Of a DNA stretch of 64,000 nt, positions 1,045 to 17,540 are shown in pieces. The notes below the pieces were generated by a model, which made no database searches, was not told the origin of the DNA, and was given only the letters and a program-made list of their open reading frames with translations. Source of the stretch: an uncultured Solirubrobacterales bacterium (GTDB taxonomy: Bacteria; Actinomycetota; Thermoleophilia; Solirubrobacterales; Solirubrobacteraceae); assembly GCA_963783415.1 (NCBI GenBank), contig CAWANN010000015.1:42711-106710 (forward strand). The letters are read 5' to 3'. The position numbers and the translations under genes are program-made. Numbering within the stretch: position 1 is the first letter of the stretch; the number at the start of each line of letters is the position of its first letter.

Positions 1045-1061
1045 TCACCTCATTCCGGTGA
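1045..1061. promoter_or_regulatory. 17-bp motif TCACC-N7-GGTGA, candidate LAL-regulator site
   Basis: TCACCTCATTCCGGTGA in the divergent esterase/LuxR intergenic region; an extra GGTGA half-site at 1033-1037, 24 bp earlier. Confidence 0.55.
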
Positions 1062-1162
1062 GTTGGTGCCGGGCGTGCGACGGGGTCTCGCACTGGTCCT
1101 CAGATGCCGGTCCTCGACATGGGCGGCCAGATCGTGCCGACTAAGCTTGATCGGACTGGGCG

Positions 1163-3862
1163 TTGAGCATGAGGGGCTTGGCAAAAGCGCGGCGTGACGA
1201 GGGTCTGGAGCGGCCGATCGCTCCGGAGATTCCAATAGCCCACGGCCGGCTTGACCGGGAGCATCTTCTGCGGAAGCTGGATCGCGCTGTGATGAGGCGG
1301 GTGACGGTCATCTCGGCGCCGGCGGGAAGTGGCAAGACGTCTCTGTTGCGTGCGTGGGCCGATCTTTCGACCAATGCTGCTCGCGTCGCGTTTGTGTCCG
1401 TCGACCGCGACGAACAGGAGGCGGAGCGGTTCTGGTCCCGTGTTCTGGATGCGCTCCGCGGCTCGGCAGCCTCGACCGATCGTCAGACGGATCGGGCGGC
1501 GGTCGGGGTTCCCGGCGACGAGCTGGTCGACGCGGTTGTTCTGGAGTTGGCCGAGCGGGCCGGGCCTTTCGTGTTGATCATCGACGATCTCCACGAGCTG
1601 AGGTCCGCTGATGCCGTGGCGCAGCTCGAGCGGTTGCTCGCGGTGCTGCCGAATTCGGCGCGCGTCGTGTTGTCGTCTCGCCGGGATCCGCCGATCAGGC
1701 TGCACAAGCTTAGGCTTGCCGACGAGCTCGCTGAGCTGCGCGCCGGCGATCTCCGGTTCACCGAGCGCGAGACGCGCGAGCTGCTTGCTGCATCGGGGAT
1801 CAGTCTGTCTGACGCCGGGGCGGCCGCGTTGTACCGGCGCACGGAAGGGTGGGCAGCCGGCCTGCGTCTCGCGGCGATCTCGCTCAGCGGTCACCCAGAC
1901 CCAGAGCGTTTCGTGGCGGAGTTCTCGGGCACGAACAGGGCGATCGGCGAGTATCTGATGGCCGAGATGCTCGAAGGCCAGCCGCGCGAGGTTCAGAGCA
2001 TGTTGCTGCGAACCTCGCTGGTCGATCGGGTGAACCGCGAACTCGCCGACCTGCTGGCAGGTCGCTCGGGCTCGGAGCAGATACTGCTCGAGCTGGAGGA
2101 CGCGAACGCGTTCGTGGTATCGCTGGACGCTCAGCGCACCTGGTTTCGCTACCACCACCTGCTGGCGGACTTCCTTCGGCTGGAGCTTCGCCGAACGTCG
2201 GCCGATGAGATTCCCGGCCTACACCGCCGGGCCGCCCGCTGGTTCGCCGACCACGGGGACGTCGTCGAGGCTGTGCGGCACACGCAAGCCGCCGGGGATT
2301 GGGTCGACGCCGCGCGACTGCTCGCGGACCACCTCTTCAGTTTGACGCTCAATGGGAACGATCGAGCGATCGCCGCGCTGTTGCGGTCATTTCCGGAGGG
2401 GCTGTCGGCGGATCATCCTGAGCTGGCGTTGGCTCACGCGGCGGTTCAGTTGGCACACGGCCGGCTGGAGGAAGCGGCTGCTCAGCTCGCGCTGGCCGAG
2501 TCCCATGTCGAGAGCGCCCAACCAGGGCGCCGCCGGGGACTCGCGGTTGCCATCGCCTCGCTGCGGTTGGCGCTCGCACGGCGTAGCGGTCAGTTCACGG
2601 AGGTGATCGAGCAGGTGAGCCTGCTTGATTCTTCGATCGCAGATGAGTCGAGCGGGGTGATCGCGATGAGCAGCGAGCTGCGCGGAGTCGCGCTGATGAA
2701 TCTCGGGATCGTCGAGATGTGGTCAGGGCGACTCGCGGACGCTGACCGGCACCTCGCCGACGGAGCCGAGCTTGCCCAGGCGATCGGCAGCCCCTACCTC
2801 GAGGTCGCGTGCCTCGCACATCGATGTTTCGCGTCGAAGCTGATCTCGGTCGCGACTGCACGTGAGCGCGGCGAGCGGGCCATCGCGCTGGCTGAGCGCT
2901 CTGGCTTCGCCGACCGCCCGATCGTCGTACCCGCGCTCGCGGCGGTCGGCGGCATCGCGGTCTGGAGGGGCGAGTTCGATGCGGGAGAAGGTTGGCTCCG
3001 TCGCGGCTGGGAGCTTGCAGAGCCGGGCGCCGACCCGGCCGCAGTCGTGTTCTTGCACGTGACGACAGGCATGCTGCACGCCGGACGCGGGCAACATCGA
3101 TCGGCGCTGGAAGAGTTCGCAGCGGCAGCCCGGACGCAAGCGCTGCTAACAGGGGTGCACGCACTTACGCCACGGATCACCGGGTGGCTCGCAGCGACGC
3201 AAGCTCGCCTCGGGATGCTGGACGAGGCTCGTACAACACTCGGTGACTACTCCGCCGAACCCGGGCGGCTGGGTGCCATCCACGCGATCGACAACGCGCG
3301 CGCCGTGGTCTTCATGGCGGAAGGTGATCCTGCGGCGGCCGTGGAGGCACTCGGAGATGTTCAGGACACGACCCAGGGCGTCCATGCGTTCACCCTCGTG
3401 GAGACGCATCTTCTAGCTGGCATCGCGCACCTGGAGCTCGGGGATCAAAATGCCGCGGCTGCCGCAGCCGAGGCAGCGCTCGCAGCCGCCGAGCCAGACC
3501 GGCTGATGTTTCCGTTCGCGATGACCGGCGCTGCGGAGCTACTCGATGCGCTACCGCGTCACAAGACCGCTCACGGCGCCCTGCTCGCCGACACCGTCAG
3601 CCTGCTGCGGGAAGAATGGGTCCCGAGCACCGACCGGGAGCGCCTCACGGAATCGGACGAGCTCAGCCCGAGCGAGCTTCGCGTGCTGCGGTATCTCCCG
3701 ACGAATCTGACCCGAGCCGAGATCGCGAGCGAGCTTTACGTGTCCACGAACACGGTCGCCACGCACATCCGCAACATCTACTCCAAGCTCGGCGTCCGCG
3801 ATCGGTCCTCCGCCGTTCGCCATGCACGCGAGTTGCGGCTCCTGTCTACCAGCCGCTCCTAA
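1163..3862 (+). CDS. MalT-like LuxR family (LAL) transcriptional regulator
   Basis: Walker A SAPAGSGKT, Walker B LIIDDLH, RTEGWAAGL, WFRYHHL, TPR-like middle region, C-terminal LuxR HTH (LSPSELRVL...VSTNTVATHIRNIYSKLGV). Confidence 0.93.
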   Translation: MSMRGLAKARRDEGLERPIAPEIPIAHGRLDREHLLRKLDRAVMRRVTVISAPAGSGKTSLLRAWADLSTNAARVAFVSVDRDEQEAERFWSRVLDALRGSAASTDRQTDRAAVGVPGDELVDAVVLELAERAGPFVLIIDDLHELRSADAVAQLERLLAVLPNSARVVLSSRRDPPIRLHKLRLADELAELRAGDLRFTERETRELLAASGISLSDAGAAALYRRTEGWAAGLRLAAISLSGHPDPERFVAEFSGTNRAIGEYLMAEMLEGQPREVQSMLLRTSLVDRVNRELADLLAGRSGSEQILLELEDANAFVVSLDAQRTWFRYHHLLADFLRLELRRTSADEIPGLHRRAARWFADHGDVVEAVRHTQAAGDWVDAARLLADHLFSLTLNGNDRAIAALLRSFPEGLSADHPELALAHAAVQLAHGRLEEAAAQLALAESHVESAQPGRRRGLAVAIASLRLALARRSGQFTEVIEQVSLLDSSIADESSGVIAMSSELRGVALMNLGIVEMWSGRLADADRHLADGAELAQAIGSPYLEVACLAHRCFASKLISVATARERGERAIALAERSGFADRPIVVPALAAVGGIAVWRGEFDAGEGWLRRGWELAEPGADPAAVVFLHVTTGMLHAGRGQHRSALEEFAAAARTQALLTGVHALTPRITGWLAATQARLGMLDEARTTLGDYSAEPGRLGAIHAIDNARAVVFMAEGDPAAAVEALGDVQDTTQGVHAFTLVETHLLAGIAHLELGDQNAAAAAAEAALAAAEPDRLMFPFAMTGAAELLDALPRHKTAHGALLADTVSLLREEWVPSTDRERLTESDELSPSELRVLRYLPTNLTRAEIASELYVSTNTVATHIRNIYSKLGVRDRSSAVRHARELRLLSTSRS

Positions 3863-3905
3863 CACTCGCGCAGCCAGCGCGGCCCTTTCTGCCGGCGGGG
3901 AACAA

Positions 3906-3946
3906 TCACCTGATCCGGGCGTAGATGGCTCACCGGATCGGGGTAC
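3906..3946. promoter_or_regulatory. Tandem pair of degenerate TCACC-N7-GG motifs, 24-bp spacing
   Basis: TCACCTGATCCGGGCGT (3906-3922) and TCACCGGATCGGGGTAC (3930-3946), just upstream of ATG 3958. Confidence 0.45.
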
Positions 3947-3957
3947 ATGATCGCAAG

Positions 3958-4260
3958 ATGACCACGCTGCCGGGCTTGTACTCGATTCGGATAAAGGGAC
4001 GGCTTGGAGCTACCGCCCTGTCCGCCTTTCCCTCGATGGCGTCCGAGCTGAAGGACGACGAGACGGTACTCACCGGCTCGCTGGAAGACCGATCGGCATT
4101 GTTCGGCGCCCTTGCGCAGGTCGAGGCCCTTGGTCTCGACCTGCTCGAACTCAAACAAATACACGCGGGAGCGAAACCGCCTAGCGGTCGCTCTCCACGA
4201 GCACCAGAGATGGGTGAATCACCGGAATCTGACGACGACGCGCCACCTGCTCGCCCGTGA
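3958..4260 (+). CDS. Small hypothetical protein of the type often adjacent to actinobacterial LAL regulators (possible ACT-like fold)
   Basis: YSIRIKGRLG...ETVLTGSLEDRSALFGALAQVEALGLDLLEL pattern; ATG 3958 preferred over 3925, which overlaps the motifs. Confidence 0.7.
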   Translation: MTTLPGLYSIRIKGRLGATALSAFPSMASELKDDETVLTGSLEDRSALFGALAQVEALGLDLLELKQIHAGAKPPSGRSPRAPEMGESPESDDDAPPARP

Positions 4261-4297
4261 GGATCTGACCACGCGTCATCGACTCCTAGGAGAACAG

Positions 4298-4381
4298 ATG
4301 AAGATCGACGCCGGATGGTGGCGAGAAGTCGCCACCGTGGCGCGGGCGTGTGTCACGCGAGATTCGCCAAGGACAAGGTGA
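4298..4381 (+). other. 27-codon ORF with RBS, coupled to the MFS gene; possible remnant of a deleted gene
   Basis: AGGAG 4288-4292, ATG 4298 (MKIDAGWWREVATVARA...); its TGA overlaps the MFS GTG (GTGA). Confidence 0.3.
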
Positions 4382-5892
4382 GGTTCGACTCTGCACCCGG
4401 TCGCTGGTTGCTCGCTGTGGCGGTGCTGGGCTCCGGTATCGCGTTCCTGGATGCCACCGTCGTCAATGTTGCATTGCCGGACATCGGCCGTGACCTGCAC
4501 GCGTCGACCAGCACCCTGCAGTGGATCCTCAACGGCTATACGCTGACGCTTGCCTCGCTGATCCTGCTCGGTGGGTCGCTTGGCGACCGGTATGGCCGGC
4601 GTCGCGTCTTCGTGTCCGGAACCGGCCTGTTCACGATCGCCTCGCTGCTGTGTGCGCTTGCGCCGAACGCCGGGCTGTTGGTGCTGGCGAGGCTCGTGCA
4701 GGGGGTCGGCGGGGCTCTTCTGACACCCGGCAGCCTGGCGATGGTCGAGTCGGGCTTTCGCCCCGCTGACCGGGCCCGAGCGATCGGCGCCTGGTCGGGG
4801 CTCAGCGCGGTGGCGGGCGCTCTGGGCCCGCTGCTCGGCGGCGTCCTGGTGGCGGCGGTGTCCTGGCGGGCGGTGTTCCTGATCAACCTTCCGCTCGGCA
4901 TCTTCATCGTCGTAATGGCAGGCCGCCACGTGCCCGAGACCCATGACCCAGCGGCCCGCGGGCCGCTCGACTTTCGCGGCGCGATCCTCGCAGCCGTCGG
5001 CCTGGCCGGCACCACCTACGCGCTGATCGAGGCCCCGGGCCGCGGCGGCTCGCCACTGGTCCTGGCGGCGGCGATCGGAGGGGGGCTTGCGCTGATCGCC
5101 TTCGTGCTCGCCGAGCGGCGTTCCGCCAATCCGATGATGCCGCTCTCGATGTTCGCTTCGCGCCAATTCAGCGCCGCCAACGCGGTGACGTTCGTCGTCT
5201 TCGGGGCCCTCAGTGGAGTGTTCTTCCTGCTTGTGGCGTTCTTGCAAATCTCGCTCGGCTACTCGCCGCTCGCGGCCGGTGCCGCCTCGCTGCCGATCAC
5301 GGCCCTGATGCTGCTCCTCTCCCCGGCTGCGGGAGAACTTGCGCAACGAATCGGGCCGAGGATCCCTTTGACCGTGGGACCGCTGGTCACGGCTATGGGA
5401 CTGGTGTTGATGTCGCGGATCGATCCAGGTGACAGCTATGTGTCGGGCGTGCTCCCGGCGGTGATCGTCTTTGGTTTGGGCCTGACCTTGGTCGTCGCGC
5501 CGGTCACGGCGACGGTGATGGCCGCCGCGGATGAGCGGCACTCGGGCATCGCGTCCGGGATCAACACCGCTGTTTCGCGTCTCTCCGGCCTGATCATCGT
5601 CGCCGTCCTGCCCTTGGTCGCGGGGCTGGCCGGGTCGAAGTTCTACGACCCGGCGGCAATGGACCACGGCTTCCACGTCGCGATGCTTACCTGCGCCGGT
5701 CTCGCGGTAGCCGGCGGGGTGCTGGCGTGGTTGACGATCAGCTCCGAAGTCCTCGAGTCCGAGCCCGCGCCCGGCGGCGACCTGCCGACCGGGGTACTCC
5801 ACGACTTCTCGTGCGCCGTCGCGGGTCCGCCACTAAGACCCGGACGCGAAGCGGAATGCCACCCCATCGCCGCCGAATCGCCGGCGGGATGA
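4378..5892 (+). CDS. MFS transporter, DHA2/EmrB-QacA family (14-TMS)
   Basis: FLDATVVNVALP, GGSLGDRYGRRR motif A, many hydrophobic helices; GTG 4378 is the likely start. Confidence 0.9.
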   Translation: MRFDSAPGRWLLAVAVLGSGIAFLDATVVNVALPDIGRDLHASTSTLQWILNGYTLTLASLILLGGSLGDRYGRRRVFVSGTGLFTIASLLCALAPNAGLLVLARLVQGVGGALLTPGSLAMVESGFRPADRARAIGAWSGLSAVAGALGPLLGGVLVAAVSWRAVFLINLPLGIFIVVMAGRHVPETHDPAARGPLDFRGAILAAVGLAGTTYALIEAPGRGGSPLVLAAAIGGGLALIAFVLAERRSANPMMPLSMFASRQFSAANAVTFVVFGALSGVFFLLVAFLQISLGYSPLAAGAASLPITALMLLLSPAAGELAQRIGPRIPLTVGPLVTAMGLVLMSRIDPGDSYVSGVLPAVIVFGLGLTLVVAPVTATVMAAADERHSGIASGINTAVSRLSGLIIVAVLPLVAGLAGSKFYDPAAMDHGFHVAMLTCAGLAVAGGVLAWLTISSEVLESEPAPGGDLPTGVLHDFSCAVAGPPLRPGREAECHPIAAESPAG

Positions 5893-5964
5893 GCCCAGCG
5901 CCATGCAAACCAAGAGCGCGACGCTTCGGAGCGCTAGCTATAAAGGGCGTGATTGCGCCGGCGG

Positions 5965-6873
5965 TCAGCCCTGGGAGCCGTTGGAGTAGGCGCCGGCCCC
6001 GATGTCCTCGATGAGGGTCGGGCCCGTCGGCTCCCACCCGAGCAGCTCGCGCGTGATCGCGCTCGAGGCGGCCATGTCGAGACCGACGAACTGCGCGAGG
6101 AAGCCGAAGCGTTCGCCGGCCTCCTCGAGCGAGATCGCGGTCGCCGGGAGCTCAAAGCGCTGGCTGATCGCGTCCGCGATATCGCGCATCGCGACGCCCT
6201 CCTCGCCGACGGCGTGCAGCACCGAGCCGCCGGGCGCGTGCTCGATCCCGAGGCGCACGAGCCGAGCGGCGTCCTTCTGGTGGACGGCGGCCCAGCGATT
6301 CTCGCCCTCTGCGACGTAGCCGGCGTCGCCGTGGCTGCGGTCGGCGTCGACGATCCGGGCGATGAAACCGTGGTCGCCGGTGCCGTGGACGGTCGGCGCG
6401 AACCGCACGCTCATCGACCGGACGCCACGCTCGGGGAGCGCGAGCACGGCGCGCTCGGAGGCGACGCGCGGGCTCGCCTCGTCGCCGGGCAGGTCTCGCT
6501 CGGTGGCGATCCCGCCTGGCCTCACCCCGGCGACGCCCGAGGCGACGGCGAGCGGTCCGTCGCTGCCGGACAGCACCTCCCCGAACACCTCGATCGCGCG
6601 ACGATCCGACGCGGCGGCCTCCTCGAAATGGCCGGTCCACGCGATGTCATGGCGGAAGGCCAGGTGGACGACCCCGTCGGCCTGCTCGGCGCCCGCGCGC
6701 AGAACATCGACGTCCTGGACATCGCCGAGCAGGACCTCGGCGCCGGACGCGGCCACCTTCTCGGCTGCCGCGTCAGAGCGAGCCAGCCCGACGACTTGAT
6801 GGCCGGCAGCGATCAGTTCGGGAACGACAGCCGAGCCGATCCAGCCGCTCGCGCCGGTAACGAATACACGCAT
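5965..6873 (-). CDS. NAD-dependent epimerase/dehydratase (extended SDR)
   Basis: MRVFVTGASGWIGSAVV Rossmann motif, VVHLAF, WAAVH. Confidence 0.9.
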   Translation of the reverse strand: MRVFVTGASGWIGSAVVPELIAAGHQVVGLARSDAAAEKVAASGAEVLLGDVQDVDVLRAGAEQADGVVHLAFRHDIAWTGHFEEAAASDRRAIEVFGEVLSGSDGPLAVASGVAGVRPGGIATERDLPGDEASPRVASERAVLALPERGVRSMSVRFAPTVHGTGDHGFIARIVDADRSHGDAGYVAEGENRWAAVHQKDAARLVRLGIEHAPGGSVLHAVGEEGVAMRDIADAISQRFELPATAISLEEAGERFGFLAQFVGLDMAASSAITRELLGWEPTGPTLIEDIGAGAYSNGSQG

Positions 6874-6943
6874 GAGAGATCCTCCGTCTTCAGGAATTGG
6901 TGTTTCGGCGACGAGAGCCGAATCGGTCCGCGCGGAGAGACCC

Positions 6944-6992
6944 GATGTCAGTCGCTGTCATCACCATAGCGCCGATGTCAGTGACTGTCAAC
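6944..6992. promoter_or_regulatory. Two TetR-type palindromic operators, 30-bp spacing
   Basis: GATGTCAGTCGCTGTCATC (6944-6962) and GATGTCAGTGACTGTCAAC (6974-6992) between the divergent SDR and TetR; TATGAT -10 at 6998-7003. Confidence 0.65.
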
Positions 6993-7009
6993 ACCACTAT
7001 GATTCGCGG

Positions 7010-7579
7010 ATGGCTCGATGGGAACCCGATGCGCGCGGCCGCCTCGTGCAGGCAGCGCTCGCACTGTATGGCGAGAACGGGTATGAAAACACCACGGTGG
7101 CCGAGATCGCCCAGCGGGCGGGGCTGACCGAGCGGACTTTTTTCCGTCACTTCGCCGATAAACGCGAGGTTCTGTTCGACGGCGGGGGCGCGCTGCAGGA
7201 GCTGATCGTCAGCGTCGTGGCCGACGCGCCCGACTCGCTGGCGCCGATCGACGCGGCAGCGGCCGGGCTTGACGCCGCAGGGGAGCATTTCTTCGTCCCC
7301 GAGCGCCGCGATTTCGCGAGACAGCGCCAGGCCGTGATCGCCTCCAACCCAGAGCTCCAAGAACGAGAGCTGACCAAGCTCGCAGCACTATCTACAGCGA
7401 TCGCAGACGCGTTGCGGCGACGCGGCGTCGAGGACCCGGCGGCGACGCTCACCGCCGAGGTCGCGATCGCGGTCTTCAGGACCGCGTTCGAGCGCTGGAT
7501 CGACCAAACCAACCGACACGACTTCCGCGAACTCGTCCGCGACTCGCTCGACCAGCTGAAAGCGCTGACCGCAGCGTAG
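7010..7579 (+). CDS. TetR/AcrR family regulator (probably leaderless)
   Basis: MARWEPDARGRL...TTVAEIAQRAGLTERTFFRHFADKREVLF HTH; ATG 6 nt after TATGAT. Confidence 0.92.
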   Translation: MARWEPDARGRLVQAALALYGENGYENTTVAEIAQRAGLTERTFFRHFADKREVLFDGGGALQELIVSVVADAPDSLAPIDAAAAGLDAAGEHFFVPERRDFARQRQAVIASNPELQERELTKLAALSTAIADALRRRGVEDPAATLTAEVAIAVFRTAFERWIDQTNRHDFRELVRDSLDQLKALTAA

Positions 7580-7694
7580 ACCGGCTCCGGACGGCACTCT
7601 CGCCCGCGCGAGCCTCAGATCTGCGCGAGTCCGGCCTCGCACCGTAGCGACCCGCGGGCGCGCACTCCGCCACAAACGGAGTCACCAGGCCGAC

Positions 7695-8009
7695 GTGACC
7701 CATAAGGGCGTGAAGCGGCGCCCGGTCATTCGCGCAAGAGCGGTCAGTCACGTGGGCAAACTCACCCTGGAGGACTACCTCTTTCTCTTCTTCGAGGGCT
7801 CCGAAACGAGTCGGGCCGCCGGCCGGGACTTCTGGCTCAGGCGACACCTGCGCACCGTCGACGTCGAGCCTTCGAGTTCGGCGCAAGCGTCCCAAGCTCA
7901 GCGATCCGCGCTGGTGGAGTGGAAAACACCTCGCGGCGAGCGGTTCGACGAGATCAAGGAGATCAGACAACCCACGCTGGTGGTCAGCGGCCGGAAAGGC
8001 GGACCATGA
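7695..8009 (+). pseudogene. Internal fragment of an alpha/beta hydrolase
   Basis: LEDYLFLFF...AAGRDFW.RRH.RT.DVEP...RFDEIKEIRQPTLVVSG resembles cap and beta-7 segments; lacks the N-terminus and catalytic His region. Confidence 0.55.
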
Positions 8010-8117
8010 CTTCGACCGACTATCAAGAGACGCATCACCCCGGGGCAATCGATAGGTCGCTCGCGCCGCGCTTTGACGGCACATCAAAACCAATCTCCCG
8101 CGGCCGCGCGTAGACGT

Positions 8118-8134
8118 TCACCCGGATCGGATGA
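8118..8134. promoter_or_regulatory. 17-bp motif TCACC-N7-GATGA
   Basis: TCACCCGGATCGGATGA; weaker copy TCCTCGATCCGGGATGG at 8158-8174. Confidence 0.55.
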
Positions 8135-8271
8135 TGCGCGGCCGCACCGTGGCGCGATCCTCGATCCGGGATGGCCCCAGACAGTTGGCGACCCTTCGGG
8201 AGACCGAGATGACGACGATCGAGCAGACCACGCCCAAGTCGGGCAACCTCGTGAGTCGCCTTTTTCCCGGC

Positions 8272-9087
8272 TCAGTACTTGGCTGAGATGTATTGGTAGG
8301 AGTGGTCGGGCTCGCGGTAGCCGCTTTGCTTCTCGCGAGCTGGTAGCCGCACGCGCTTCCGGGGTGGTGAGTCGTAGGGGAGCTGCTCAAGCAGGTGGCT
8401 GATGATGTTCAGTCGGGCGCGCTTCTTATCGTTGGAGTCAGCGACGTGCCAGGGAGCAAAGTCCGTGTTGGTCGCCTCGAACATCTCGTCGCGCGCTCGG
8501 GAGTAGTCATACCAGCGGCTGTAGGACTTGAGGTCCATGGGCGACAGTTTCCAGACCTTGCGCGGATCGTTGATCCGCGACTCGATTCTCCGCGTCTGCT
8601 CTTCCTGGCCGACCTCGAGCCAGTACTTGAGCAGGATGATCCCCGAGTCGACCATCGCCCTCTCGACCAACGGCGCCAGTCGCAAGAATCGCAATGCTTC
8701 GTCCTCGGAGCAGAAGCCCATCACCCGTTCGACCCCGGCGCGGTTGTACCAGCTGCGGTCGAAGATCACGACCTCGCCGGCGGCGGGAAAATGCTCCAGG
8801 TAGCGCTGGACGTACATCTGGGACTTCTCACGGTCGGTCGGTGCCGGGAGCGCGACCACCCGGAACACGCGAGGGCTCACTCGCTCGGTGATCCGTTTGA
8901 TTACCCCGCCCTTCCCGGCCGTGTCACGACCTTCGAACACGATGCAGACCTTGACCCCCTCCCGCACGACCCACTCCTGAAGCCGAACCAGTTCCCCCTG
9001 CAGACGAGCGAGCTCCTTCTCGTAGCGTTTGCGGCCAAGCTTTTCGACCGCTCGCGCGTCCTGTTTCGTCTGCTTGTTGTGACTCAT
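8272..9087 (-). CDS. ppk2: Polyphosphate kinase 2
   Basis: Walker A FEGRDTAGKGG, Walker B FDRSWYNRAGVERVMGF, WKLSPMD lid, DSNDKKRARLN; ATG 9087 (MSHNKQ...). Confidence 0.93.
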   Translation of the reverse strand: MSHNKQTKQDARAVEKLGRKRYEKELARLQGELVRLQEWVVREGVKVCIVFEGRDTAGKGGVIKRITERVSPRVFRVVALPAPTDREKSQMYVQRYLEHFPAAGEVVIFDRSWYNRAGVERVMGFCSEDEALRFLRLAPLVERAMVDSGIILLKYWLEVGQEEQTRRIESRINDPRKVWKLSPMDLKSYSRWYDYSRARDEMFEATNTDFAPWHVADSNDKKRARLNIISHLLEQLPYDSPPRKRVRLPAREKQSGYREPDHSYQYISAKY

Positions 9088-9177
9088 GTGCAGCCCTCCA
9101 CTGAGGCGCGGGAACTGGGCCTCAGGTCGAAAACTGGAGATCCTAAGTGACAGGTCTCTCCGCGCCAGCGATGTGGC

Positions 9178-9198
9178 CCTCCTCCTCCTCCTCCTCCT
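9178..9198. repeat. (CCT)7 trinucleotide microsatellite, (AGG)7 on the minus strand
   Basis: Seven perfect CCT units read directly. Confidence 0.9.
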
Positions 9199-9204
9199 CT
9201 CGCT

Positions 9205-9421
9205 ACCCCGCGCTAGCTCAGCCTGATACTCGGACAGCGGCTGAACGGCTTCTCCAGCCAGCGCGACGCCCTCTTGTTCCACTTGATGCAGCCTCTGAGG
9301 CGAAGGATCGAAGGCCTGGGGAGAGCCTCACGCGCGAGCCCGGCTCCACCTTGAACGGCGGGATGAACTCCGCCAGCCGTCGCTTCTGCTTACGGGTCAA
9401 TTCCTGATGTTGGCTGGTCAT
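9205..9421 (-). pseudogene. Frameshifted N-terminal remnant of a second (class III-like) PPK2
   Basis: MTSQHQELTRKQKRRLAEFIPPFKVEPGSRVRL, then in another frame EGVALAGEAVQPLSEYQAELA; stops before Walker A. Confidence 0.5.
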
Positions 9422-9484
9422 CTCAGCTCCGGACGCGCGGCCACTCACAACGCCTACGACCCTTTCCGGGGGCAGGCAGAATGA

Positions 9485-9501
9485 TCACCCCGATCAGATG
9501 A
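9485..9501. promoter_or_regulatory. 17-bp motif TCACC-N7-GATGA upstream of the ppk2 unit
   Basis: TCACCCCGATCAGATGA. Confidence 0.55.
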
Positions 9502-9503
9502 AG

Positions 9504-9899
9504 CTACGGCGTCGTGCTGGTCGTTGTCCTGGGCGCGGAGGTGTTCGTCGTCACCGCGTCGGCGGTGGTGACAGTGGTCGTCCGCGGCGGCGAGGTGACC
9601 GTGGTGCCGGTCGTGGTCGTTCTGGTCGGCTGCACGATGGTCGTGGTCTTGTCGACGCTCACCGATTTCGTTGTCGGCGTCGACGAGGTCTTCGACGAGC
9701 TGCTGTTGGCCAGCAGCACGACGACGACCACGACAGCGGCGATGGCCAGTGCGATCCCGCCGGCGATCGCCCAGCCGCGGCCCCCGCCTCCGCGCTCGGG
9801 CCCGTATCGACCGCTTCCCGGCCGCTCGCCCGGTGGAACGGGGCGGTCGCCGGGTGCTCCCGGACGGTCGTCGGGGGGAGGATCGAAGCTTTCAGACAT
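9504..9899 (-). CDS. Hypothetical single-pass membrane protein, Pro-rich N-terminus and Thr/Ser-rich C-terminus
   Basis: MSESFDPPPDDRPG..., TM segment WAIAGGIALAIAAVVVVVVLL, Thr-rich tail; start placed at 9899. Confidence 0.7.
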   Translation of the reverse strand: MSESFDPPPDDRPGAPGDRPVPPGERPGSGRYGPERGGGGRGWAIAGGIALAIAAVVVVVVLLANSSSSKTSSTPTTKSVSVDKTTTIVQPTRTTTTGTTVTSPPRTTTVTTADAVTTNTSAPRTTTSTTP

Positions 9900-9934
9900 G
9901 TCAGGAACGCTGTCGCGCGCCGGGGAGAGATGCG

Positions 9935-9951
9935 TCATCCCGATCGGATGA
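9935..9951. promoter_or_regulatory. 17-bp motif TCATC-N7-GATGA between the divergent membrane protein and SulP
   Basis: TCATCCCGATCGGATGA. Confidence 0.6.
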
Positions 9952-9993
9952 TGGCGCCGTCCGGACCGATCTGTACACCGGTCGTCTGTAGCC

Positions 9994-11742
9994 ATGGCGA
10001 CCAGGGATCGGAAGCAGGGTGGGCTCGCGCGTTACGTGCCGGCGGTCGGTTGGCTGCGCCGGTACGAGCGGCGGTGGCTGCGAGGTGATCTGGCGGCGGG
10101 CGTGGCCGTCACGGCGTTGGTCGTGCCGAAGAACCTCGGATACGCGGGCATCGCCGGTGTGCCGCTCCAGAACGGTCTCTATGCCGCGGCCGCGGGGGCG
10201 ATCATCTACGCCTTCTTCTGCACGTCTCGTCAGATCTCGACCGGCCCAAGCTCCTCGCTTGCCGCGGTCGCCGGTGGCGCGGTGCTGGCGACCAGCCTTG
10301 GCGGGCAGGACGCCGCGCAGCTGGTCGCGGCCATCACGCTGGCCACCGGGCTGCTGTTCCTCCTGCTTGCCGTGTTCCGGCTTGGGTGGATCGCGCAGTT
10401 CCTCTCAAAAGCGGTGGTCACGGGTTTCCTGGCCGGCGCCGCGGTGGACGTGGTCATCGGGGAGCTGCCGAAGCTGACCGGTACGTCGTCGAAGGGCGAC
10501 ACCGCCTGGCGCGAGCTGGCGACATGGGTCGGATCGCTCGGCGAGATCCATTGGACGACACTGGTGGTCGGGGTGCTGTCGATCGCGCTCATCCTCGCGC
10601 TCCGGTTCCTGGCGCCGGCCGTCCCGGGCGCGCTGGTGCTCGTGGCCGCGGGGCTGCTCGCATCCGCCGTGTTTGACCTCGGTGCCCACGGGGTGGCGCT
10701 CGTCGGGCACGTGCCACGAGGGCTCCCTGCCCCCAAGCTGCCCGATTTCACGATCGTGAGGCAGCACTACGCGAGCATCGGCATCGCTGCGGTCGCACTG
10801 CTGCTGATCGGGTTCTCGCAGACCGCGGGAGACGCTCGCGCGTTTGCCGCCCGGCACGGGTACCGGATCGACGTGAATCAGGAGTCCGTCGCGCAGGGGA
10901 TGGCGAACGTGGGTGCCGGCGTGTTCCAGGGGATGCCCGTCTCCACCAGCCTCTCGGCCAGCTCCTTGAACGAGTCCGCGGGCGCGCAGACTCCGGTCGC
11001 CTCGCTCACGACCGGGGCGCTCGTGATCGCGACGCTGATCGTGCTCGCGCCGGTGTTCTCGCATCTCCCGAAGGCCGTCCTCGGGGCCGTGATCATCGAC
11101 GCGGTCGTGTTCGGGATGATCGACATCGCCGAGCTGCGCCGTCTTCACCGCGTCGCGCGGTTCGACTTCTGGGTCGCGGTGATGGCGATCATCGGTGTGC
11201 TCTCTGCCGGAGTGCTCGCCGGCGTGGTCATCGGCGTCGTCCTCTCGCTGAGCTGGCTCGTGTATGTCGCCACCCGACCCCCGATGCCGCTGCTGGGCCG
11301 CGAGGCCGGAACGCAGGTGTTCCGCGACCTCGACGAGAACCCCGGTGACGAGACGTTCCCGGGGATCGCGGTTGTGCGTCTCGACGGCGGTCTGTTCTTC
11401 GCCACCGCCGAAGCGCTCGAGGATCGCGTTCGAGAACTCACCGAAGACGGCGGCCGGTCTCGCGCTCTGGTGCTCGATCTCGAAGGCGTCGATTTCGTCG
11501 ACTCGCAGGGCGCGGCAAAGCTGAGCGAGATCCACCGGCTCACCCAGGCCGACGGCGTCACGCTTCGCCTGGCGCGGGTGAAGCCACCCGTTCTCAAGGT
11601 GCTCCGCGCCGACGGGACCCTCGAGCTGATCGGCTCGGACCACATTCACGGCAACGTCAACCGCGCGATCGAGGCACAGCTCGCCGACGGTGAGACCGGC
11701 AGCCCGCCCCCCGAGGGCGACGCCGAGGGAGGAGCATCATGA
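9994..11742 (+). CDS. SulP family anion transporter with STAS domain
   Basis: GDLAAGVAVTALVVPKNLGYA.IAGVP...GLYAA, GP motif, C-terminal STAS (LFFATAE...LVLDLEGVDFVDSQG). Confidence 0.93.
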   Translation: MATRDRKQGGLARYVPAVGWLRRYERRWLRGDLAAGVAVTALVVPKNLGYAGIAGVPLQNGLYAAAAGAIIYAFFCTSRQISTGPSSSLAAVAGGAVLATSLGGQDAAQLVAAITLATGLLFLLLAVFRLGWIAQFLSKAVVTGFLAGAAVDVVIGELPKLTGTSSKGDTAWRELATWVGSLGEIHWTTLVVGVLSIALILALRFLAPAVPGALVLVAAGLLASAVFDLGAHGVALVGHVPRGLPAPKLPDFTIVRQHYASIGIAAVALLLIGFSQTAGDARAFAARHGYRIDVNQESVAQGMANVGAGVFQGMPVSTSLSASSLNESAGAQTPVASLTTGALVIATLIVLAPVFSHLPKAVLGAVIIDAVVFGMIDIAELRRLHRVARFDFWVAVMAIIGVLSAGVLAGVVIGVVLSLSWLVYVATRPPMPLLGREAGTQVFRDLDENPGDETFPGIAVVRLDGGLFFATAEALEDRVRELTEDGGRSRALVLDLEGVDFVDSQGAAKLSEIHRLTQADGVTLRLARVKPPVLKVLRADGTLELIGSDHIHGNVNRAIEAQLADGETGSPPPEGDAEGGAS

Positions 11743-13040
11743 AGTGGGAGATTCCCATACTCGCTGCGGCCCTGCTGGCCGTCGCGGGCGTGTCGCGCCG
11801 GCTGACCGACACGCCGTTCACGCCGGCCATGGCGTTCGTGCTGATCGGACTGGTGGTCGGACCGTTTGTGCTCGACGAGGTGTCGGTGTCCCCCGCGAGC
11901 GGGACGGTCCGCACGCTCGCCGAGGCGACGCTCGCTGTCGTGCTGTTCGCCGACGCCTCGCGTATCAAGCTCCGCGTGCTCAGGCGGGAGTACGCGGTGC
12001 CGCTGCGACTGCTCGGCATCGGGCTGCCGCTCACGATCGTGATCGGCGCGCTGCTCGCCGCGGCAATGTTCGCGCACCTGAACGCCGGTGAGGCCGTAGT
12101 GCTGGCCGTGCTGCTGGCGCCTACGGACGCCGCCCTCGGACAAGCGGTGGTGACCGAGCCGCGACTCCCGTCACGGATTCGACAGGGACTCAACGTCGAG
12201 AGCGGACTCAACGACGGGATCTGCGTGCCGCTGCTGTTGATCGCGCTGGCGGCCGCGGACATCGAGGCCAAGGCGACCACGAGCCATCATGCGATCAGCA
12301 TCGTGGCGGAAGAAATCGGCTACGGGATCCTCGGTGGCATGGTGGCGGGTCTGGCGGCCGGTGCCGTGGTCGCGATCGGCCACCGCCGGGATCTGATCAG
12401 CGGACCGTGGCTCCAGGTCATCCCGATCGCCGCCGCGGCCCTCGCCTACGGTTTCGCGGCGGCGCTCGGCGGCTCGGGGTTCATCGCAGCCTTCCTTGCC
12501 GGCGCCATCTTCGGTGGTCTCGTCCCGGAGGAGTCCGAGGAGGCCTCACGCCTCAACGAGGAGCTCGGGGCGCTCCTTGGCGGAGTGACGCTCCTGATCT
12601 TCGGCGCCGTGCTCCTAGGGCCAACCCTGAACCACGTGAGCTGGCAGATCGCCCTCTACGCGGGACTGAGCCTGACCGTCGTTCGCATGTTGCCCGTCGC
12701 GATCGCGATGCTCGGGAGCGCCGCCAAGTGGCAAACGGTCGGGTTCCTCGGCTGGTTCGGCCCGCGAGGGCTGGCATCGATCGTGTTCGCGGTAATCACC
12801 GTCCAGCAAGCGCACCTGGCCGGCGTCGACACGATCCTGCGCGCCACCTACCTGACCATCGGCCTGTCCGTATTCGCCCACGGCATCACCGCCGTGCCGC
12901 TGGCCAGGCGCTACGCCCGCTGGTACGAGGCTCACCCGCAGCACCGCAGGCCGCCGATGGAAAGCGTTCATGCGCCACACCATCGCGCCCGTTGGAGACC
13001 GCGGCCCCCGGGCGAGCCCGAATCATCGATTCCAGCGTGA
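11739..13040 (+). CDS. Cation:proton antiporter (CPA1/NhaP-like)
   Basis: LAPTDAALG, LNVESGLNDG, GWFGPRGLASIVF; ATGA overlap with SulP. Confidence 0.9.
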   Translation: MKWEIPILAAALLAVAGVSRRLTDTPFTPAMAFVLIGLVVGPFVLDEVSVSPASGTVRTLAEATLAVVLFADASRIKLRVLRREYAVPLRLLGIGLPLTIVIGALLAAAMFAHLNAGEAVVLAVLLAPTDAALGQAVVTEPRLPSRIRQGLNVESGLNDGICVPLLLIALAAADIEAKATTSHHAISIVAEEIGYGILGGMVAGLAAGAVVAIGHRRDLISGPWLQVIPIAAAALAYGFAAALGGSGFIAAFLAGAIFGGLVPEESEEASRLNEELGALLGGVTLLIFGAVLLGPTLNHVSWQIALYAGLSLTVVRMLPVAIAMLGSAAKWQTVGFLGWFGPRGLASIVFAVITVQQAHLAGVDTILRATYLTIGLSVFAHGITAVPLARRYARWYEAHPQHRRPPMESVHAPHHRARWRPRPPGEPESSIPA

Positions 13041-13390
13041 AGAACCGACCTCGAGCGCCCAAAGGCCCGCCGCCTGCGTGCTACTGACCCAGGTAGCGCT
13101 GGACGAGCTCCGAAGGTGCAGGCCGTCGTCGAGCACCGTGGCGCTCTCGGTCACGTTGGGCCTGCAGAGCCATGAGCCGTTGAACTCGTTGCCGTTGCTG
13201 TGGACACACGACACGTTCGCGACGACCCAGGGAGACCGGAGAAGTACGCCTGGAGATCCTTCTGCACCCTGGCATCCGACACGGGGCCAGCAGGAGTCTG
13301 GCTGCTCGGCACGGTCTTGGTGACGTGCTGGCTGCCGCAGCCGCTGAAAGCGGGGGCGGCAAGCACCGCCCCCGCTGCCAGGTACTTCAT
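13023..13390 (-). pseudogene. Small lipoprotein, probably frameshifted near 13228
   Basis: Lipobox AFSG-C after a hydrophobic stretch; 79-aa frame ends at 13151, a second frame continues VVANVSCVHSNGNEFNGSWLCRP; TGATG overlap with the collagen-like gene. Confidence 0.45.
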
Positions 13391-13974
13391 CAGCTAGCTG
13401 ACTCCGTGTAGGTCTGGTTGACCGGCACGTTCAGGTTGGGGACGCACAGCGCCCACACCTTGACCTTCTCGGGAGCCTGGCCGTTCTGGCTGGCGAACTG
13501 GACGATCCAACCGTCGAGCCGGCCCGGCTTTGGGGTGTTCGTGGACCAGTCCATGCGGCCCGGGAACGACTGGCCGACGGGCACCGTCTTGGTGTAGTCG
13601 TCAGTCGAGACGCCACCGCTGATCGCGGTATCAGTCGGCGCCTTGCAGGCCACCGTGGCGATCGCGCCGCCGTTCGTGTCGCCCACGTCGTAGTAGGCCA
13701 CGCTGTAGTACGCGCCCTGCAGGTACGAATCGCCGTTCTGACCGTTCTGGCCAGCCGGACCCTGCGCACCGTTCTGACCGTTCTGACCGGGAGCGCCGGC
13801 CGGACCGGTGTCGCCCCTCGGACCCTGCGACCGGGCGATGATCCGCCGCGTGGCGCGCTTGGTGATGTGGTGCTTGCCCTTGTGGGGCTTGGAGTGATGG
13901 CCCGTGTTCGCCATTGCGGTGGCGGGCATCAGCATGGTTGCGGCGGCTCCTGCGACCAGGATGATTTTGCGCAT
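13390..13974 (-). CDS. Secreted collagen-like protein (11 Gly-X-Y triplets plus C-terminal globular domain)
   Basis: Signal peptide ending AMA, His/Lys-rich segment, GPR-GDT-GPA-GAP-GQN-GQN-GAQ-GPA-GQN-GQN-GDS, two Cys; AAAGGAA RBS. Confidence 0.8.
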   Translation of the reverse strand: MRKIILVAGAAATMLMPATAMANTGHHSKPHKGKHHITKRATRRIIARSQGPRGDTGPAGAPGQNGQNGAQGPAGQNGQNGDSYLQGAYYSVAYYDVGDTNGGAIATVACKAPTDTAISGGVSTDDYTKTVPVGQSFPGRMDWSTNTPKPGRLDGWIVQFASQNGQAPEKVKVWALCVPNLNVPVNQTYTESAS

Positions 13975-14054
13975 TCGCGTTCCTTTGGGGGTTTATTTGC
14001 CAGCGGATGTCACTCCGCTCGGGGGGAGAGGCGGGCGCTCTTGCTTCACGTATT

Positions 14055-14179
14055 GCTAGCATTCGCGCTGGCAATTATGCTAGCACTTCCGCTAGCACGA
14101 TGAGGCCTCTTCTTAGGGACTTCTTCGCCGCGGACCGCTTAGCGTCCGCGCTGACGCTCGTGCTAGCATCGGCGCTAGC
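14055..14179. repeat. Two arrays of GCTAGC-type palindromes with 12-bp period (candidate RHH operator)
   Basis: GCTAGC 14055, GCTGGC 14067, GCTAGC 14079, GCTAGC 14091; CTTAGC 14138, GCTGAC 14150, GCTAGC 14162, GCTAGC 14174. Confidence 0.75.
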
Positions 14180-14217
14180 GCCGGACACCCTGACGATCTC
14201 TTCCCTAACTCTTTGCC

Positions 14218-14475
14218 ATGGCCATGACCCGCACCACGATCAGCTTTACCCGCGAGGGTATGCAGCTGATTCAGGAAGCGGCTAAGCGCCAGGGCTCGAG
14301 TGTCTCCCAGTTCGTCCGGGAAGCCGCGCTGATGCGCGCAACGATGGCCGCCGACGACAACCCGTACCCGATGCGCGCCCTCGCCGCCCAACTGCGCGCG
14401 ATCGGCGACCAGGGATACGCGCTAGCTGAGAAGGCGATGAAGGTCGCCGAGGACGAGGCCGAGCGCAAGTGGTGA
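14218..14475 (+). CDS. Ribbon-helix-helix DNA-binding protein (CopG/DUF1778-like)
   Basis: N-terminal strand RTTISF, helix MQLIQEAAKRQG, SVSQFVREAA. Confidence 0.75.
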   Translation: MAMTRTTISFTREGMQLIQEAAKRQGSSVSQFVREAALMRATMAADDNPYPMRALAAQLRAIGDQGYALAEKAMKVAEDEAERKW

Positions 14476-14764
14476 TGCCGCCAGGGCAACCGCCCGAGCG
14501 GCCTATCGCGACCGCCTGACCGGCGCCGGCGAACGACGGCCGTCATCGCCCGGCTTCGGCACTGGGAGCGGCTTCCGCCTACGCCGCAGCCTGGGCCCGG
14601 TCCGTGCGTTCGCGCTCGGCGTTAGCTGGCGGGGGGGTGTGCGCCTCTCTAAGAGGGGTGCTCGCGCCCTCCCGCTGCCCGCGGGTACGGGGTATGCTGC
14701 CCGCCAATACGGATCGGTCGCCTGCACTGAGACGGGTGGGCCGAGATGGGAGAGGTGGGTGGCC

Positions 14765-17464
14765 ATGTCGGAGCGTGTCAATGGCAGCGCCGGTTGGTCA
14801 ACTAGCGGTATTGGCAGGTGGCGTGCGGCCCTCGCGCTGCTGATGCCTCGCCGAGCGTGGCGCGTGCCGGTCCTCCTGCTGCTCGCGCTGGGGGCATTCC
14901 TGCTGCAGGCCGCTCCTGCCGGCGCAGTCTTTCGCCCCGGGCCACCCCCAGGGGCACCACCGCAGGTACGGGCCAACACCGAGCTGGTGATGTCCGGCAC
15001 CGGTAACGGCCAGGCGGTCAGCGGGTTCATCGCCACCCCGGCACCACCTTCGACCCAGTCACGGACCGCTATCCCACGAGCAACCCGACCACCGGCTTCA
15101 CCGCCCTTGAACGAGGGCTTCGCGGGCATCATCCGTCGCCCGTCCGCCCGAGCGGCGGCGCGAACCTGCAGCCTCTACTGCATCGACATCTTAACCGCTA
15201 CGTACGGCGGAATCGGGTACATAGCTGGGCACCTGGGACGCCGCCAACGTCCCCAACGTGGGCTACGTGGCGCGGCTGCTCAACGAGTACTACCCGAACA
15301 AGCCGACGAACCGGCCGCCTGACCGACCTCAACCAGACGGCCGCGGCCGTGCAGGCGGCCATCTGGTACTTCACCGACCGCTACGTGCTGAACACCACTG
15401 ACCCGCTGCACAGCACCGTGGCCGCCATCGTGGCCCACATCCAAATGGCGGGGCCAGCTGGGCGAGCCGGCGCCGCCCAGCCTCACCATCACCCCGCCGT
15501 CATGTGAGCGGCCCCGCCGTAGTGTGCTCGGGACCGTTCACGGTCAACACCAACAGCGGTCGCCACCACCACTTCCGGAGCGCCCGGACGCCACCGTGAC
15601 CGCCACGGGCGGGGAGATGTTCTCGGACTCGGCAGGCGCACGGTGCCGGATCGGAATCACAGCCACGGTGCCGTCCGGCCACGAAGATCTGGGTGCGCTC
15701 CACGGGTCCCACCATCGCGGTGCTCGAGGCCACGGCGGAGGCTACCGTCCCCAGCGGCAACGTCTACCTCTACGACGGCAACAGCGGGGTCAGCGACGCC
15801 CAGCACCTGATCCTGGCCAAGACGGGCACCTTGAAAACCACCGTCAAAGCTGAGGCCGAGTTTCTGCCCCCCGGCTCGCTCGTCGTCAAGAAGACGATCA
15901 CCGGTCCCGCGGCCGGATCGCAGGCGCATGTCGTCATCCACGTGGCCTGCGACGATGGCGTGCGCCAGGGACGACTTCATCATCCCCGCCGGTGCGCCCG
16001 CGGGCACCAAATCGAAGACGTACGAACCCATCCCGGCCGGAACGAGGTGTACCGTCACCGAGACTAACAACGGCAGCATCGTTGGCACGGACGTGGTGGT
16101 GATCGAGGCCGCGCAGGAGGCAACCATCCCGTCCGGCGGAACGCGAGACGGTGAAAATCAAGGACTTCTATTACCACGTCGGCTCGCTGCTCGTGAGGAA
16201 GACGATCGCGGGTCCGGCTGCGGGTCAGCAAGGGCAGATCACGATCCACTCCGAGTGTCATGGCAAGGCCTTGACCCCGGACTTTGTGATCCCCGCCGGG
16301 ACTCCCGCGGGTGACCAGACCATGCAATACGACAACATCCGTGTCCCAGCCAAATGCACGGTTACCGAGACCGTCGACGGACACACCAGCACCGTGTCGG
16401 TCGACGTCGTCGGGAGCGGGCAGACCGTACCCGTCGATCACGGTGACATCGCCGAGGCGGACATCAGCGACGCGTACGGACTCGTCCCCGGCCAGCTCGA
16501 GGTGACGAAATCCATTGCCGGCCCGCTTGCCGGGCAACAGGGACAGATCGTTATCCACACGGTCTGCAACGGCACCGCCCTGTCGCCTGACCTCATCATC
16601 CCGCCAGGGGCCACAGGCGACCATTCCCAGATGTACTCGAATATCCCCACCCCGGCGAGCTGCGTCTCCACCGAGACCGTGGACGGGGCTACCAGCGCCG
16701 TCTCGGTAGTCGTCACCGGCAGCCCCGACAGCGTCACGATCCCCGCGGGCGGCTCAGGGGCCGCTCACATCACCGACACCTACGGATCGGCTCCCGGCTC
16801 CCTGCTCGTCACAAAGACCATCGCCGGTCCCGCCGCCGGCCACCAGGGGCCGGTCACGATCAACGTGGTCTGCAACGGCGTCGCCCTGTCGCCGGACGTC
16901 GTGGTCGCGGCCGGGACTCACGCGGGCAACGTGTCGCAGGGTTTCGACGACATTCCAGCCGGCTCGGTATGCACCGTCACGGAGACCGCGGACGGCGCCA
17001 CCGCCACCGTCACGGCGACCGTATCCGGCAATGATCAGACGGTGACCGTACCCGCGGGCAAGGCGGTATCGGTGAACGTGATGGACGTCTACCAGCAGAC
17101 GCCCGGGCTCGCGCCAGAGGTACCGGGCCCGTCCGGCTCGCTCAGAGTGACCAAGACCATCGCTGGACCGGCCGCCCGCCAGCACGGTCGCATCTCGATC
17201 CTCGTGGTCTGTGGCGGCCCGATCCACACGTATGCCTTCCGCATCCCGGCCCACACCGGTCCCGGCTCTGTGTCACGCTATTACCCCGATCTCCCGGTCG
17301 GATCCCGCTGCACCGTCACCGAGACCACAGACGGCCACACCAGTACCGTCGCCGTGACAGCGACCAGCAAAGGCAAGAAGGCGACCATACACGCCAATCG
17401 CACAGCCACCGTTCATCTCACTGACACGTTCTTCAGTGTCAAGGCGGTCGCGGTCACGGGCTAA
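14765..17464 (+). pseudogene. Thioester-domain (TED/TQXA-type) surface protein with about five DUF5979-like repeats; many frameshifts in 15.0-16.15 kb
   Basis: Signal peptide ending APAGA; YCIDI at 15176; VQAAIWYF at 15349 in another frame; repeats GSL.V.KTIAGPAAG...C...C.VTET (four intact in 16151-17464); ends VAVTG-stop. Confidence 0.75.
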
Positions 17465-17523
17465 CGGGAGCGCAGGCGAAGCCGGGCTGCGCGATTCCAA
17501 CGATGTGACCGCGTCGCGCGCGT

Positions 17524-17540
17524 TCATCCCATCCGGGTGA
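17524..17540. promoter_or_regulatory. 17-bp motif TCATC-N7-GGTGA upstream of DUF6325
   Basis: TCATCCCATCCGGGTGA; GGTGA half-site again 24 bp later (17560-17564). Confidence 0.6.

Follow-up and report, generated by a model that had tools for sequence, protein, structure and literature searches.

The window under study, a stretch of 64,000 nucleotides (nt) taken from contig C15 (CAWANN010000015.1, positions 42711-106710), belongs to the metagenome-assembled genome (MAG) of an uncultured member of the Solirubrobacterales, which comprises 5.63 Mb in 24 contigs with a GC content of 68.5%. It carries four strong copies of a 17-bp palindrome, here called the class A box, whose refined consensus, (ca)TCAYCC-N5-GGRTGA(tg), is frequently centred on CGATCG. 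The class A box genuinely marks the promoters of a regulon of membrane and stress proteins, as can be seen from its statistics, its geometry, its co-occurrence with regulator genes across genomes and its identity with a box published for Actinoplanes. The protein that very probably binds it is a MalT-like regulator of the LAL family encoded on another contig, C17 (hereafter LAL_C17), and not the LAL protein encoded in the window itself (hereafter LAL_win). The class A boxes of the window and the genes lying next to them are the following (positions are those of the window; ORF, open reading frame; PWM, position weight matrix):

8118..8134, strand not assigned: class A box beyond the 3' end of ppk2, with no clear target
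8272..9087, minus strand: ppk2, polyphosphate kinase 2 of 271 amino acids (Pfam PPK2, E = 4e-97; NCBIfam TIGR03707, above cut-off)
9215..9448, minus strand: ORF of 77 codons between box 9485 and ppk2, starting at GTG
9485..9501, minus strand: class A box, predicted to serve a transcript running into ppk2; GTG 36 nt leftwards, at 9448
9935..9951, plus strand: class A box, TCATCCCGATCGGATGA-TG, predicted to drive the SulP-antiporter operon; best PWM score in the window
9994-11742, plus strand: SulP/STAS anion transporter (Pfam Sulfate_transp, STAS)
11739-13040, plus strand: Na+/H+ exchanger (Pfam Na_H_Exchanger), overlapping the SulP gene as in an operon
17524..17540, plus strand: class A box, TCATCCCATCCGGGTGA-TG, predicted to drive the DUF6325 gene; –10 GAATCT at offsets 23-28
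17610..18092, plus strand: DUF6325 gene (Pfam PF19850), a conserved regulon member

The motif had been noticed in an earlier sequence-only reading of the window in the looser form TCAYC-N7-GRTGA, of which five exact copies are found in the window (1045, 8118, 9485, 9935 and 17524) against 0.28 expected, a count of at least five being reached in none of 100 shuffles, and 40 in the whole genome, about 30 of them intergenic. A palindromic PWM was built without iteration from 20-29 intergenic seeds, after an iterated low-threshold matrix had drifted to coding-like patterns and had been dropped, and genes were called with a codon log-likelihood caller, replacing a finder based on a threshold of GC content at third codon positions (GC3) whose calls covered just 66% of the genome. 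The PWM scores are bimodal genome-wide: of the 32 sites that reach a score of 18, 27 are intergenic, although coding DNA makes up 87% of the genome (binomial p = 1e-19). In every strong site the spacer is 5 nt. Matches scoring below 18 are read as noise, because nearly all of them sit inside genes, and these matches, together with the drift of the permissively iterated matrix, would fit a motif that has no regulatory role and results from chance, a repeat family or codon bias. For the strong boxes this explanation is refuted and deserves practically no credence, in view of the intergenic enrichment, the fixed distance of the boxes to –10 hexamers and start codons, their conservation ahead of orthologues in many genomes, and the counts of a reversed-pattern control, which are 0-1 per genome (in this genome, 1 against 17 strict boxes).

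On the PWM the strong boxes of the window score 28.7 (9935), 26.5 (17524), 26.3 (8118) and 25.1 (9485), and no match beyond 20 kb in the window reaches 7, in agreement with the sequence-only reading, which had seen no copies by eye between 20 and 64 kb. Of the other sites which that reading had listed, 1045 (16.2) and 3906 (11.6) are weak and 8158 scores below 0. The second sites that it had placed 24 bp away at three loci do not hold: 1021, 3930 and 17548 all score below 0, and 3906/3930 consists of two direct copies (TCACCTGATCCGGG and TCACCGGATCGGGG), not of two palindromes. Of the sites that it had called intergenic and upstream of starts, 9935 extends into the 3' end of an ORF of doubtful status (9514-9951, without family match) and 8118 has no clear target. 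The earlier list had merged two classes of box, because 1045 and 3906 belong to a TCACC-N7-GGTGA class, treated below as class B.

The position of the class A box with respect to the promoter is fixed. At about ten genes the distance from the box to the ATG or GTG is 33-36 nt, and a gap of this size to the start codon suggests that many of the targets are translated from leaderless mRNAs. Among 612 oriented half-windows pooled from this genome and 115 related loci, 303 carry the TG flank, and downstream of these TG-flanked boxes a –10 element of the form (T)ANNNT is found at offsets 23-28, with A in 62% at offset 24 and T in 73% at offset 28, so that the hexamer starts after 22 nt downstream of the box; in the opposite orientation the –10 signal is faint. 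Because the –10 offset is fixed, transcription is expected to start about 34-35 nt past the 3' end of the box, with the centre of the box near –43. The class A box is thus predicted to occupy the –35 region, in a layout of the class-II activator type. In the mechanism that we propose, the box, which in most cases has a TG next to it on the side of the promoter, would replace the –35 element, and RNA polymerase would be recruited, in the manner of class-II activators, by a dimer of LuxR-type helix-turn-helix (HTH) domains bound to the box.

Among the targets in the window, DUF6325 is associated with a box elsewhere too: 12 of 15 homologues in other genomes have one within 400 bp upstream, and boxes are also found at the paralogues C16:134517-134969 and C20:221931-222395 of the genome studied here. 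The ATG of the SulP gene lies 42 nt past box 9935, and a relative (G017) keeps the arrangement of a box, 42 nt, a SulP remnant and then an antiporter that is 90% identical to the Na+/H+ exchanger of the window. The SulP orthologues in G008 and G013 were checked for an upstream box and have none, so the membership of SulP is lineage-specific. As for ppk2, a plausible regulon member, coding statistics and the N-terminus MSHNKQTK place its true start at the ATG at 9087; since the gene is on the minus strand, its upstream box is 9485, and 8118 lies beyond its 3' end. The orientation of box 9485 is taken from the downstream genes because TG is present on neither flank. The 77-codon ORF that separates this box from ppk2 includes MTSQHQELTRKQKRRLAEFIPPFKVEPGSRVRL in its translation and then goes out of frame; its N-terminus (...LAEFIPPFKVEPGSRVRL...) looks like the remnant of a second PPK2-type gene, and the ORF may have been the first gene, now decayed, in an operon with two ppk2 genes. 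The ppk2 of G017, which is 93% identical, is part of an MFS-ppk2 operon divergent from the antiporter box.

On the right side of box 8118 the TG flank is present, GATCCT resembles a –10 element, and an ATG stands at offset 37. The ORF starting there, however, has just 13 codons, and a rightward transcript would proceed antisense to the 3' end of ppk2; on its left side an ATG lies 33 nt off. The ORF at 7476-8084 on the minus strand was considered as a target and rejected, being not coding-like (GC3 0.63) and without homologues or family matches. The box may be an orphan promoter, or may serve a small RNA or a transcript that is antisense to the end of ppk2. The surrounding stretch of about 700 bp (7580-8270) has no ORF of coding-like composition, despite the strong box.

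The local module of 1-17.5 kb that had been proposed from the window alone does not describe the regulon, which is genome-wide and has its core on C17, beside LAL_C17. Fifteen strong boxes cluster at about C17:233-258 kb and further ones are found on C15, C21, C7, C20, C16 and C1, so that the strong boxes of the window are outliers of this regulon, of which DUF6325, the operon of SulP and the Na+/H+ exchanger, and the transcript running into ppk2 would be outlying members. That these genes belong to a regulon, as the sequence-only reading had it, is plausible. The targets in the C17 island and in dispersed positions include SHOCT, DUF1269 (two copies), diacylglycerol kinase (DAGK), MFS, DUF2252, SfLAP (two copies), MIP, ClC, a K+ channel, PAP2, CMD (two copies), DUF7144 and DUF6325 (three copies); ion channels, transporters and membrane proteins of DUF families are numerous in the regulon. 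In other genomes a box stands at most 400 bp upstream of 29/35 and 29/34 homologues of the two DUF1269 proteins and of 36/58 and 34/49 homologues of the two CMD proteins. Membership in the regulon is fluid across genomes, which Droste et al. (2020) noted as well. The conservation in these regulons of poorly understood membrane proteins such as DUF1269, DUF6325, CMD and SHOCT offers a handle on their function. The best box of the genome (29.6, at C20:306368) precedes an ORF of 175 amino acids (C20:306459-306986) that matches residues 1-142 of the Na+/H+ exchanger of the window with 80% identity, and the region is therefore read as a duplicated promoter with a 5' gene fragment.

A regulon of this type is already described, contrary to what had been supposed from the window. 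In an island of 51 genes of Actinoplanes sp. SE50/110, 17 mapped transcription starts are preceded by the palindrome 5'-TCATCC-5nt-GGATGA-3', with its 3' end 34.4 +/- 1.0 nt from the start and overlapping the –35 region, and its half-site was related by the authors to the core GGA(T/G)GA of the E. coli MalT box (Droste et al., 2020; PMC7567727). Deletion of ACSP50_3915, a MalT-like LuxR regulator encoded in the island, lowered and its overexpression raised the expression of about 40 of the 51 island genes, and the only two regulator genes listed for the island are both MalT-like LuxR genes (PMC7567727). The island and its relatives contain SHOCT, DUF1269, diacylglycerol kinase, MFS, DUF2252, ppk2 and many membrane proteins, ppk2 being found in the equivalent islands of relatives of SE50/110 (PMC7567727). 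The class A box is this published MalT-type activator box: the sequence is identical, and so are the –35 position and the distance to the start, here obtained through –10 elements and start codons. The two systems also share a MalT-like LuxR/STAND regulator in a box-rich island with more than one LuxR-type regulator, the families DUF1269, SHOCT, diacylglycerol kinase and MFS, as well as DUF2252 and ppk2, which on the Actinoplanes side come from SE50/110 relatives, many membrane proteins, and a gene order that is highly fluid between genomes.

By contrast with Actinoplanes, the host belongs to the Solirubrobacterales in the class Thermoleophilia, the regulon extends over at least nine contigs with the boxes of the window far from the regulator, the island includes a conserved pair of NarL-type response regulators, and the targets add SulP, the Na+/H+ exchanger, ClC, MIP, the K+ channel and DUF6325; genes for an amylase, a glucosidase or an arginine deiminase were not seen. 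The Actinoplanes MalT-type box with its fixed promoter geometry thus reaches a deep-branching class, and no new mechanism is revealed.

The resemblance to MalT of E. coli and Klebsiella concerns the architecture of the regulator, a STAND ATPase with a TPR-like sensor and a C-terminal LuxR HTH, and, in E. coli, the half-site, GGATGA corresponding to the MalT-box core GGA(T/G)GA, and the overlap of the promoter-proximal box with the –35 region. The E. coli MalT boxes (GGGGAKGAGG) are, however, asymmetric and arranged in direct-repeat arrays, whereas those described here are palindromic and mostly single; both LAL proteins are far below the cut-off of the MalT equivalog model (about 266-267 bits for LAL_win and 222 for LAL_C17 against 537), and no mal genes are found among the family matches of the window, C17 and dispersed targets. 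LAL regulators are also known as pathway regulators of secondary-metabolite clusters in actinomycetes, such as PikD and AveR, which share the domain plan, an ATPase at the N-terminus and a LuxR HTH at the C-terminus, and control one biosynthetic cluster each. Unlike these, the regulon described here has genome-spread membrane, ion-transport and DUF proteins as targets and no biosynthetic cluster.

As to the regulator, its kind had been foreseen correctly, as the boxes are of the type used by MalT-like (LAL, STAND plus LuxR HTH) activators. Five candidates with a LuxR HTH were compared by their co-occurrence with boxes in 41 relatives; within the genus strict boxes number 7-27 in 16 genomes and 0-4 in 9, with 0-1 for the reversed-pattern control. 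LAL_C17 (C17:236752-238932), a MalT-like STAND/LAL protein with TPR_MalT and GerE domains, is encoded inside the core island and has as its best structural-sequence match the PDB entry 8bob (MalT, E = 1e-26). A box is located in its upstream region, a divergent promoter, and is conserved in relatives. Its orthologues are present in 14 of the 16 box-rich genomes and in none of the 9 box-poor ones. A PAS-LuxR protein of the same island (C17:239386-240000) was rejected, as it is absent from the box-rich G007, G012, G014, G018 and G019 and present in the box-free G011.

The strongest competitor is the tandem pair of NarL-type response regulators, RR-A (C17:233202-233930) and RR-B (C17:232316-232981), which together span C17:232316-233930, are 58% identical to each other and share the invariant HTH motif LTKRAVEKH(V/I)N. 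Of 80 Thermoleophilia loci, about 35 have the pair within 10 kb of the MalT-like LAL gene, and no adjacent histidine kinase was identified. The profiles of LAL_C17 (LAL) and of the response regulators (RR) were scored in 301 genomes of the order, each at least 85% complete, with the following counts of strict boxes:

LAL and RR present: 38 genomes, mean 8.3 boxes, at least 3 boxes in 92%
LAL present, RR absent: 34 genomes, mean 3.7 boxes, at least 3 boxes in 65%
LAL absent, RR present: 26 genomes, mean 3.0 boxes, at least 3 boxes in 35%
neither present: 203 genomes, mean 0.87 boxes, at least 3 boxes in 8%

Genomes with LAL alone differ in their counts from those with neither (p = 1e-10) and from those with RR alone (p = 0.04). 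If RR-A and RR-B bound the class A boxes, as homo- or heterodimers, with the LAL as a mere co-clustered member or an upstream regulator, the boxes would be those of a NarL-type dimer, which a 17-bp palindrome suits. The HTH of the response regulators is highly conserved across the order, and for 18 of 64 of their homologues a box is present in the 400 bp upstream. In Streptomyces venezuelae, BldM, an orphan response regulator of the NarL/FixJ type, binds TCACcCgnncGgGTGA and forms a heterodimer with WhiI (Al-Bassam et al., 2014; PMC4125116), a system which resembles the present one in the LuxR-type HTH dimer and in a palindrome of nearly the same half-sites. The BldM site, however, is of 16 bp with a spacer of 4 nt (TCACCC-N4-GGGTGA) instead of 17 bp with a spacer of 5 nt, and BldM is a developmental regulator. 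The boxes described here persist in the 34 genomes that lack a response regulator orthologue, 22 of which have at least 3. In seven such genomes (G133, G089, G151, G124, G101, G196 and G233) a box lies directly upstream of the LAL gene, at about 100-220 bp. Conversely, 14 of the 26 genomes with RR and no LAL have 0-1 boxes (e.g., G031, G035, G066, G091, G183 and G246), and among the apparent exceptions with RR and boxes, G261, G263 and G313 have a divergent or frameshifted LAL within a box cluster. In 80 loci of the LAL_C17 family, drawn from Solirubrobacterales, Thermoleophilaceae, Conexibacteraceae, Gaiellaceae, Solirubrobacter soli and Candidatus S. pratensis, boxes lie beside nearly all homologues of at least 36% identity, often with no response regulator gene within 10 kb; in S. 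soli they are present in the locus L056. Taken with the genetic dependence of the same box on a MalT-like LAL in Actinoplanes, where both listed island regulators are of that type, these data make binding by the response regulators unlikely.

LAL_C17 is therefore the best candidate on the grounds of co-occurrence, of the LAL-family loci and of the Actinoplanes genetics, and we consider it highly probable that it is the activator binding the class A boxes. With it, about 30 promoters and their likely activator can be assigned in an uncultured lineage of Solirubrobacterales. Several observations nevertheless weigh against this assignment. Binding and activation by LAL_C17 are predictions for an uncultured MAG, and ACSP50_3915 and LAL_C17 are likened through their type, their islands and their boxes. 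Within the genus the orthologues of RR-A and RR-B follow the boxes perfectly (16/16 box-rich against 0/9 box-poor genomes). Boxes and RR occur with no detected LAL in G266 (10 boxes) and G026 (4 boxes), G079 and G100 being further LAL-negative exceptions, where false negatives are possible since just three first-look LAL candidates were scored per genome, and four LAL-positive genomes (G202, G232, G262 and G253) have no strict box. BldM half-sites are almost equal to those of class A, and the half-site cannot separate a LAL from a response regulator, because MalT and BldM both use half-sites like GGRTGA/TCACCC; nor does HTH similarity to E. coli MalT separate LAL_C17 from LAL_win. The recognition helix of LAL_win (THIRNIYSKLG) is even nearer to that of E. 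coli MalT (THIRNLYQKLG) than is that of LAL_C17, and LAL_win may therefore cross-bind class A boxes. In the genus g61, to which G202, G232 and G262 belong, the LAL is intact in the absence of strict boxes, and the box may have drifted there. Some box-linked LAL orthologues carry in-frame stops or frameshifts (G208, G261 and G313), and G208, whose LAL has two stops and which has no strict box, fits regulon decay.

The sequence-only reading had assigned all the sites to LAL_win. This gene and the class B boxes that flank it are located in the first 6 kb of the window:

427..1008, minus strand: alpha/beta hydrolase (esterase), Pfam Abhydrolase_3
1045..1061, minus strand: class B box, leftwards TCACCGGAATGAGGTGA-TG, predicted to drive the esterase, divergent from LAL_win
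1163..3862, plus strand: LAL_win, MalT-like LAL with AAA_16/STAND, TPR and GerE domains
3906..3922, plus strand: degenerate class B-like box, TCACCTGATCCGGGCGT, upstream of the small ORF and the MFS gene
3958-4260, plus strand: small ORF without family match
4315-5892, plus strand: MFS transporter (Pfam MFS_1)

If LAL_win bound all the sites listed in the window, it would run ppk2, SulP and the antiporter, and DUF6325 as a local module. LAL_win is physically near these sites, it is MalT-like (266 bits) with a recognition helix close to that of MalT, and the boxes 1045 and 3906 flank it in canonical promoter geometry. Its presence, however, is uncorrelated with that of class A boxes, which occur also in genomes without the gene: orthologues are absent (at most 47% identity) from ten box-rich genomes (G001, G003, G008, G012, G014, G015, G017, G018, G019 and G024), are present (at least 70% identity) in the box-free G010 and G006, and are carried by just 25 of the 151 genomes of the genus. 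Most class A boxes, moreover, are on other contigs, around a different LAL, and the boxes beside LAL_win orthologues are of another class. LAL_win is therefore rejected as the regulator of the class A boxes, and its control of such a local module is largely refuted and very improbable. The case is a cautionary one, in that the LuxR/LAL gene closest to the boxes does not encode their regulator, which comes to light only through co-occurrence across genomes.

The class B box, TCACC-N7-GGTGA, lacks the inner CC/GG of class A and is probably the own site of the LAL_win family, to judge from its distribution. In 30 loci with LAL_win orthologues, 12 exact copies are found in 77 kb of flanks, against about 0.3 expected, and none inside the LAL genes; their scores on the class A PWM are 3.6-16, and TCACCATCATCCGGTGA is a form that recurs among them. 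In L135 and L136, which hold the closest orthologues, the box is retained at –121 together with its TG flank, and in orthologues a further copy is often placed 35-93 nt past the stop codon. In the window, box 1045 is followed leftwards by the TG flank, then by GATGAT and, at offset 37, by an ATG in the frame of the esterase, which is thus probably translated without a leader from this ATG at 1008, a start deduced from the geometry of the box. On the other side of LAL_win, an ATG at 3958 lies 35 nt past box 3906, in frame with the ORF called at 3925-4260 (MTTLPGLYSIRIKG...); judging by position only, the small ORF and the MFS gene are probably local targets of LAL_win. LAL_win thus probably serves just class B boxes and local targets, namely the esterase and the small ORF with the MFS gene. 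Class B boxes also occur at C17:62193 and C17:65492 of this genome, the latter with the sequence TCACCATCATCCGGTGA, and in the loci L135-L161.

The two families of regulators can be combined, tentatively, in a scheme that we regard as possible and somewhat short of an even chance, in which LAL_C17 with TCAYCC-N5-GGRTGA would govern membrane and ion homeostasis genome-wide and LAL_win and a paralogue with TCACC-N7-GGTGA would act locally, the two LALs being paralogues that have diverged in the boxes they use; the response regulator pair may add a further input or co-bind, as in the case of BldM and WhiI. If this were true, the divergence of the boxes would insulate two regulons that share a common promoter geometry.

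The genes lying between the SulP operon and DUF6325 (13390-17464) are unrelated to the regulon and include:

13390-13974, minus strand: collagen-repeat protein
14218-14475: RHH/NikA-like small protein
16151-17464: DUF5979 repeat surface protein

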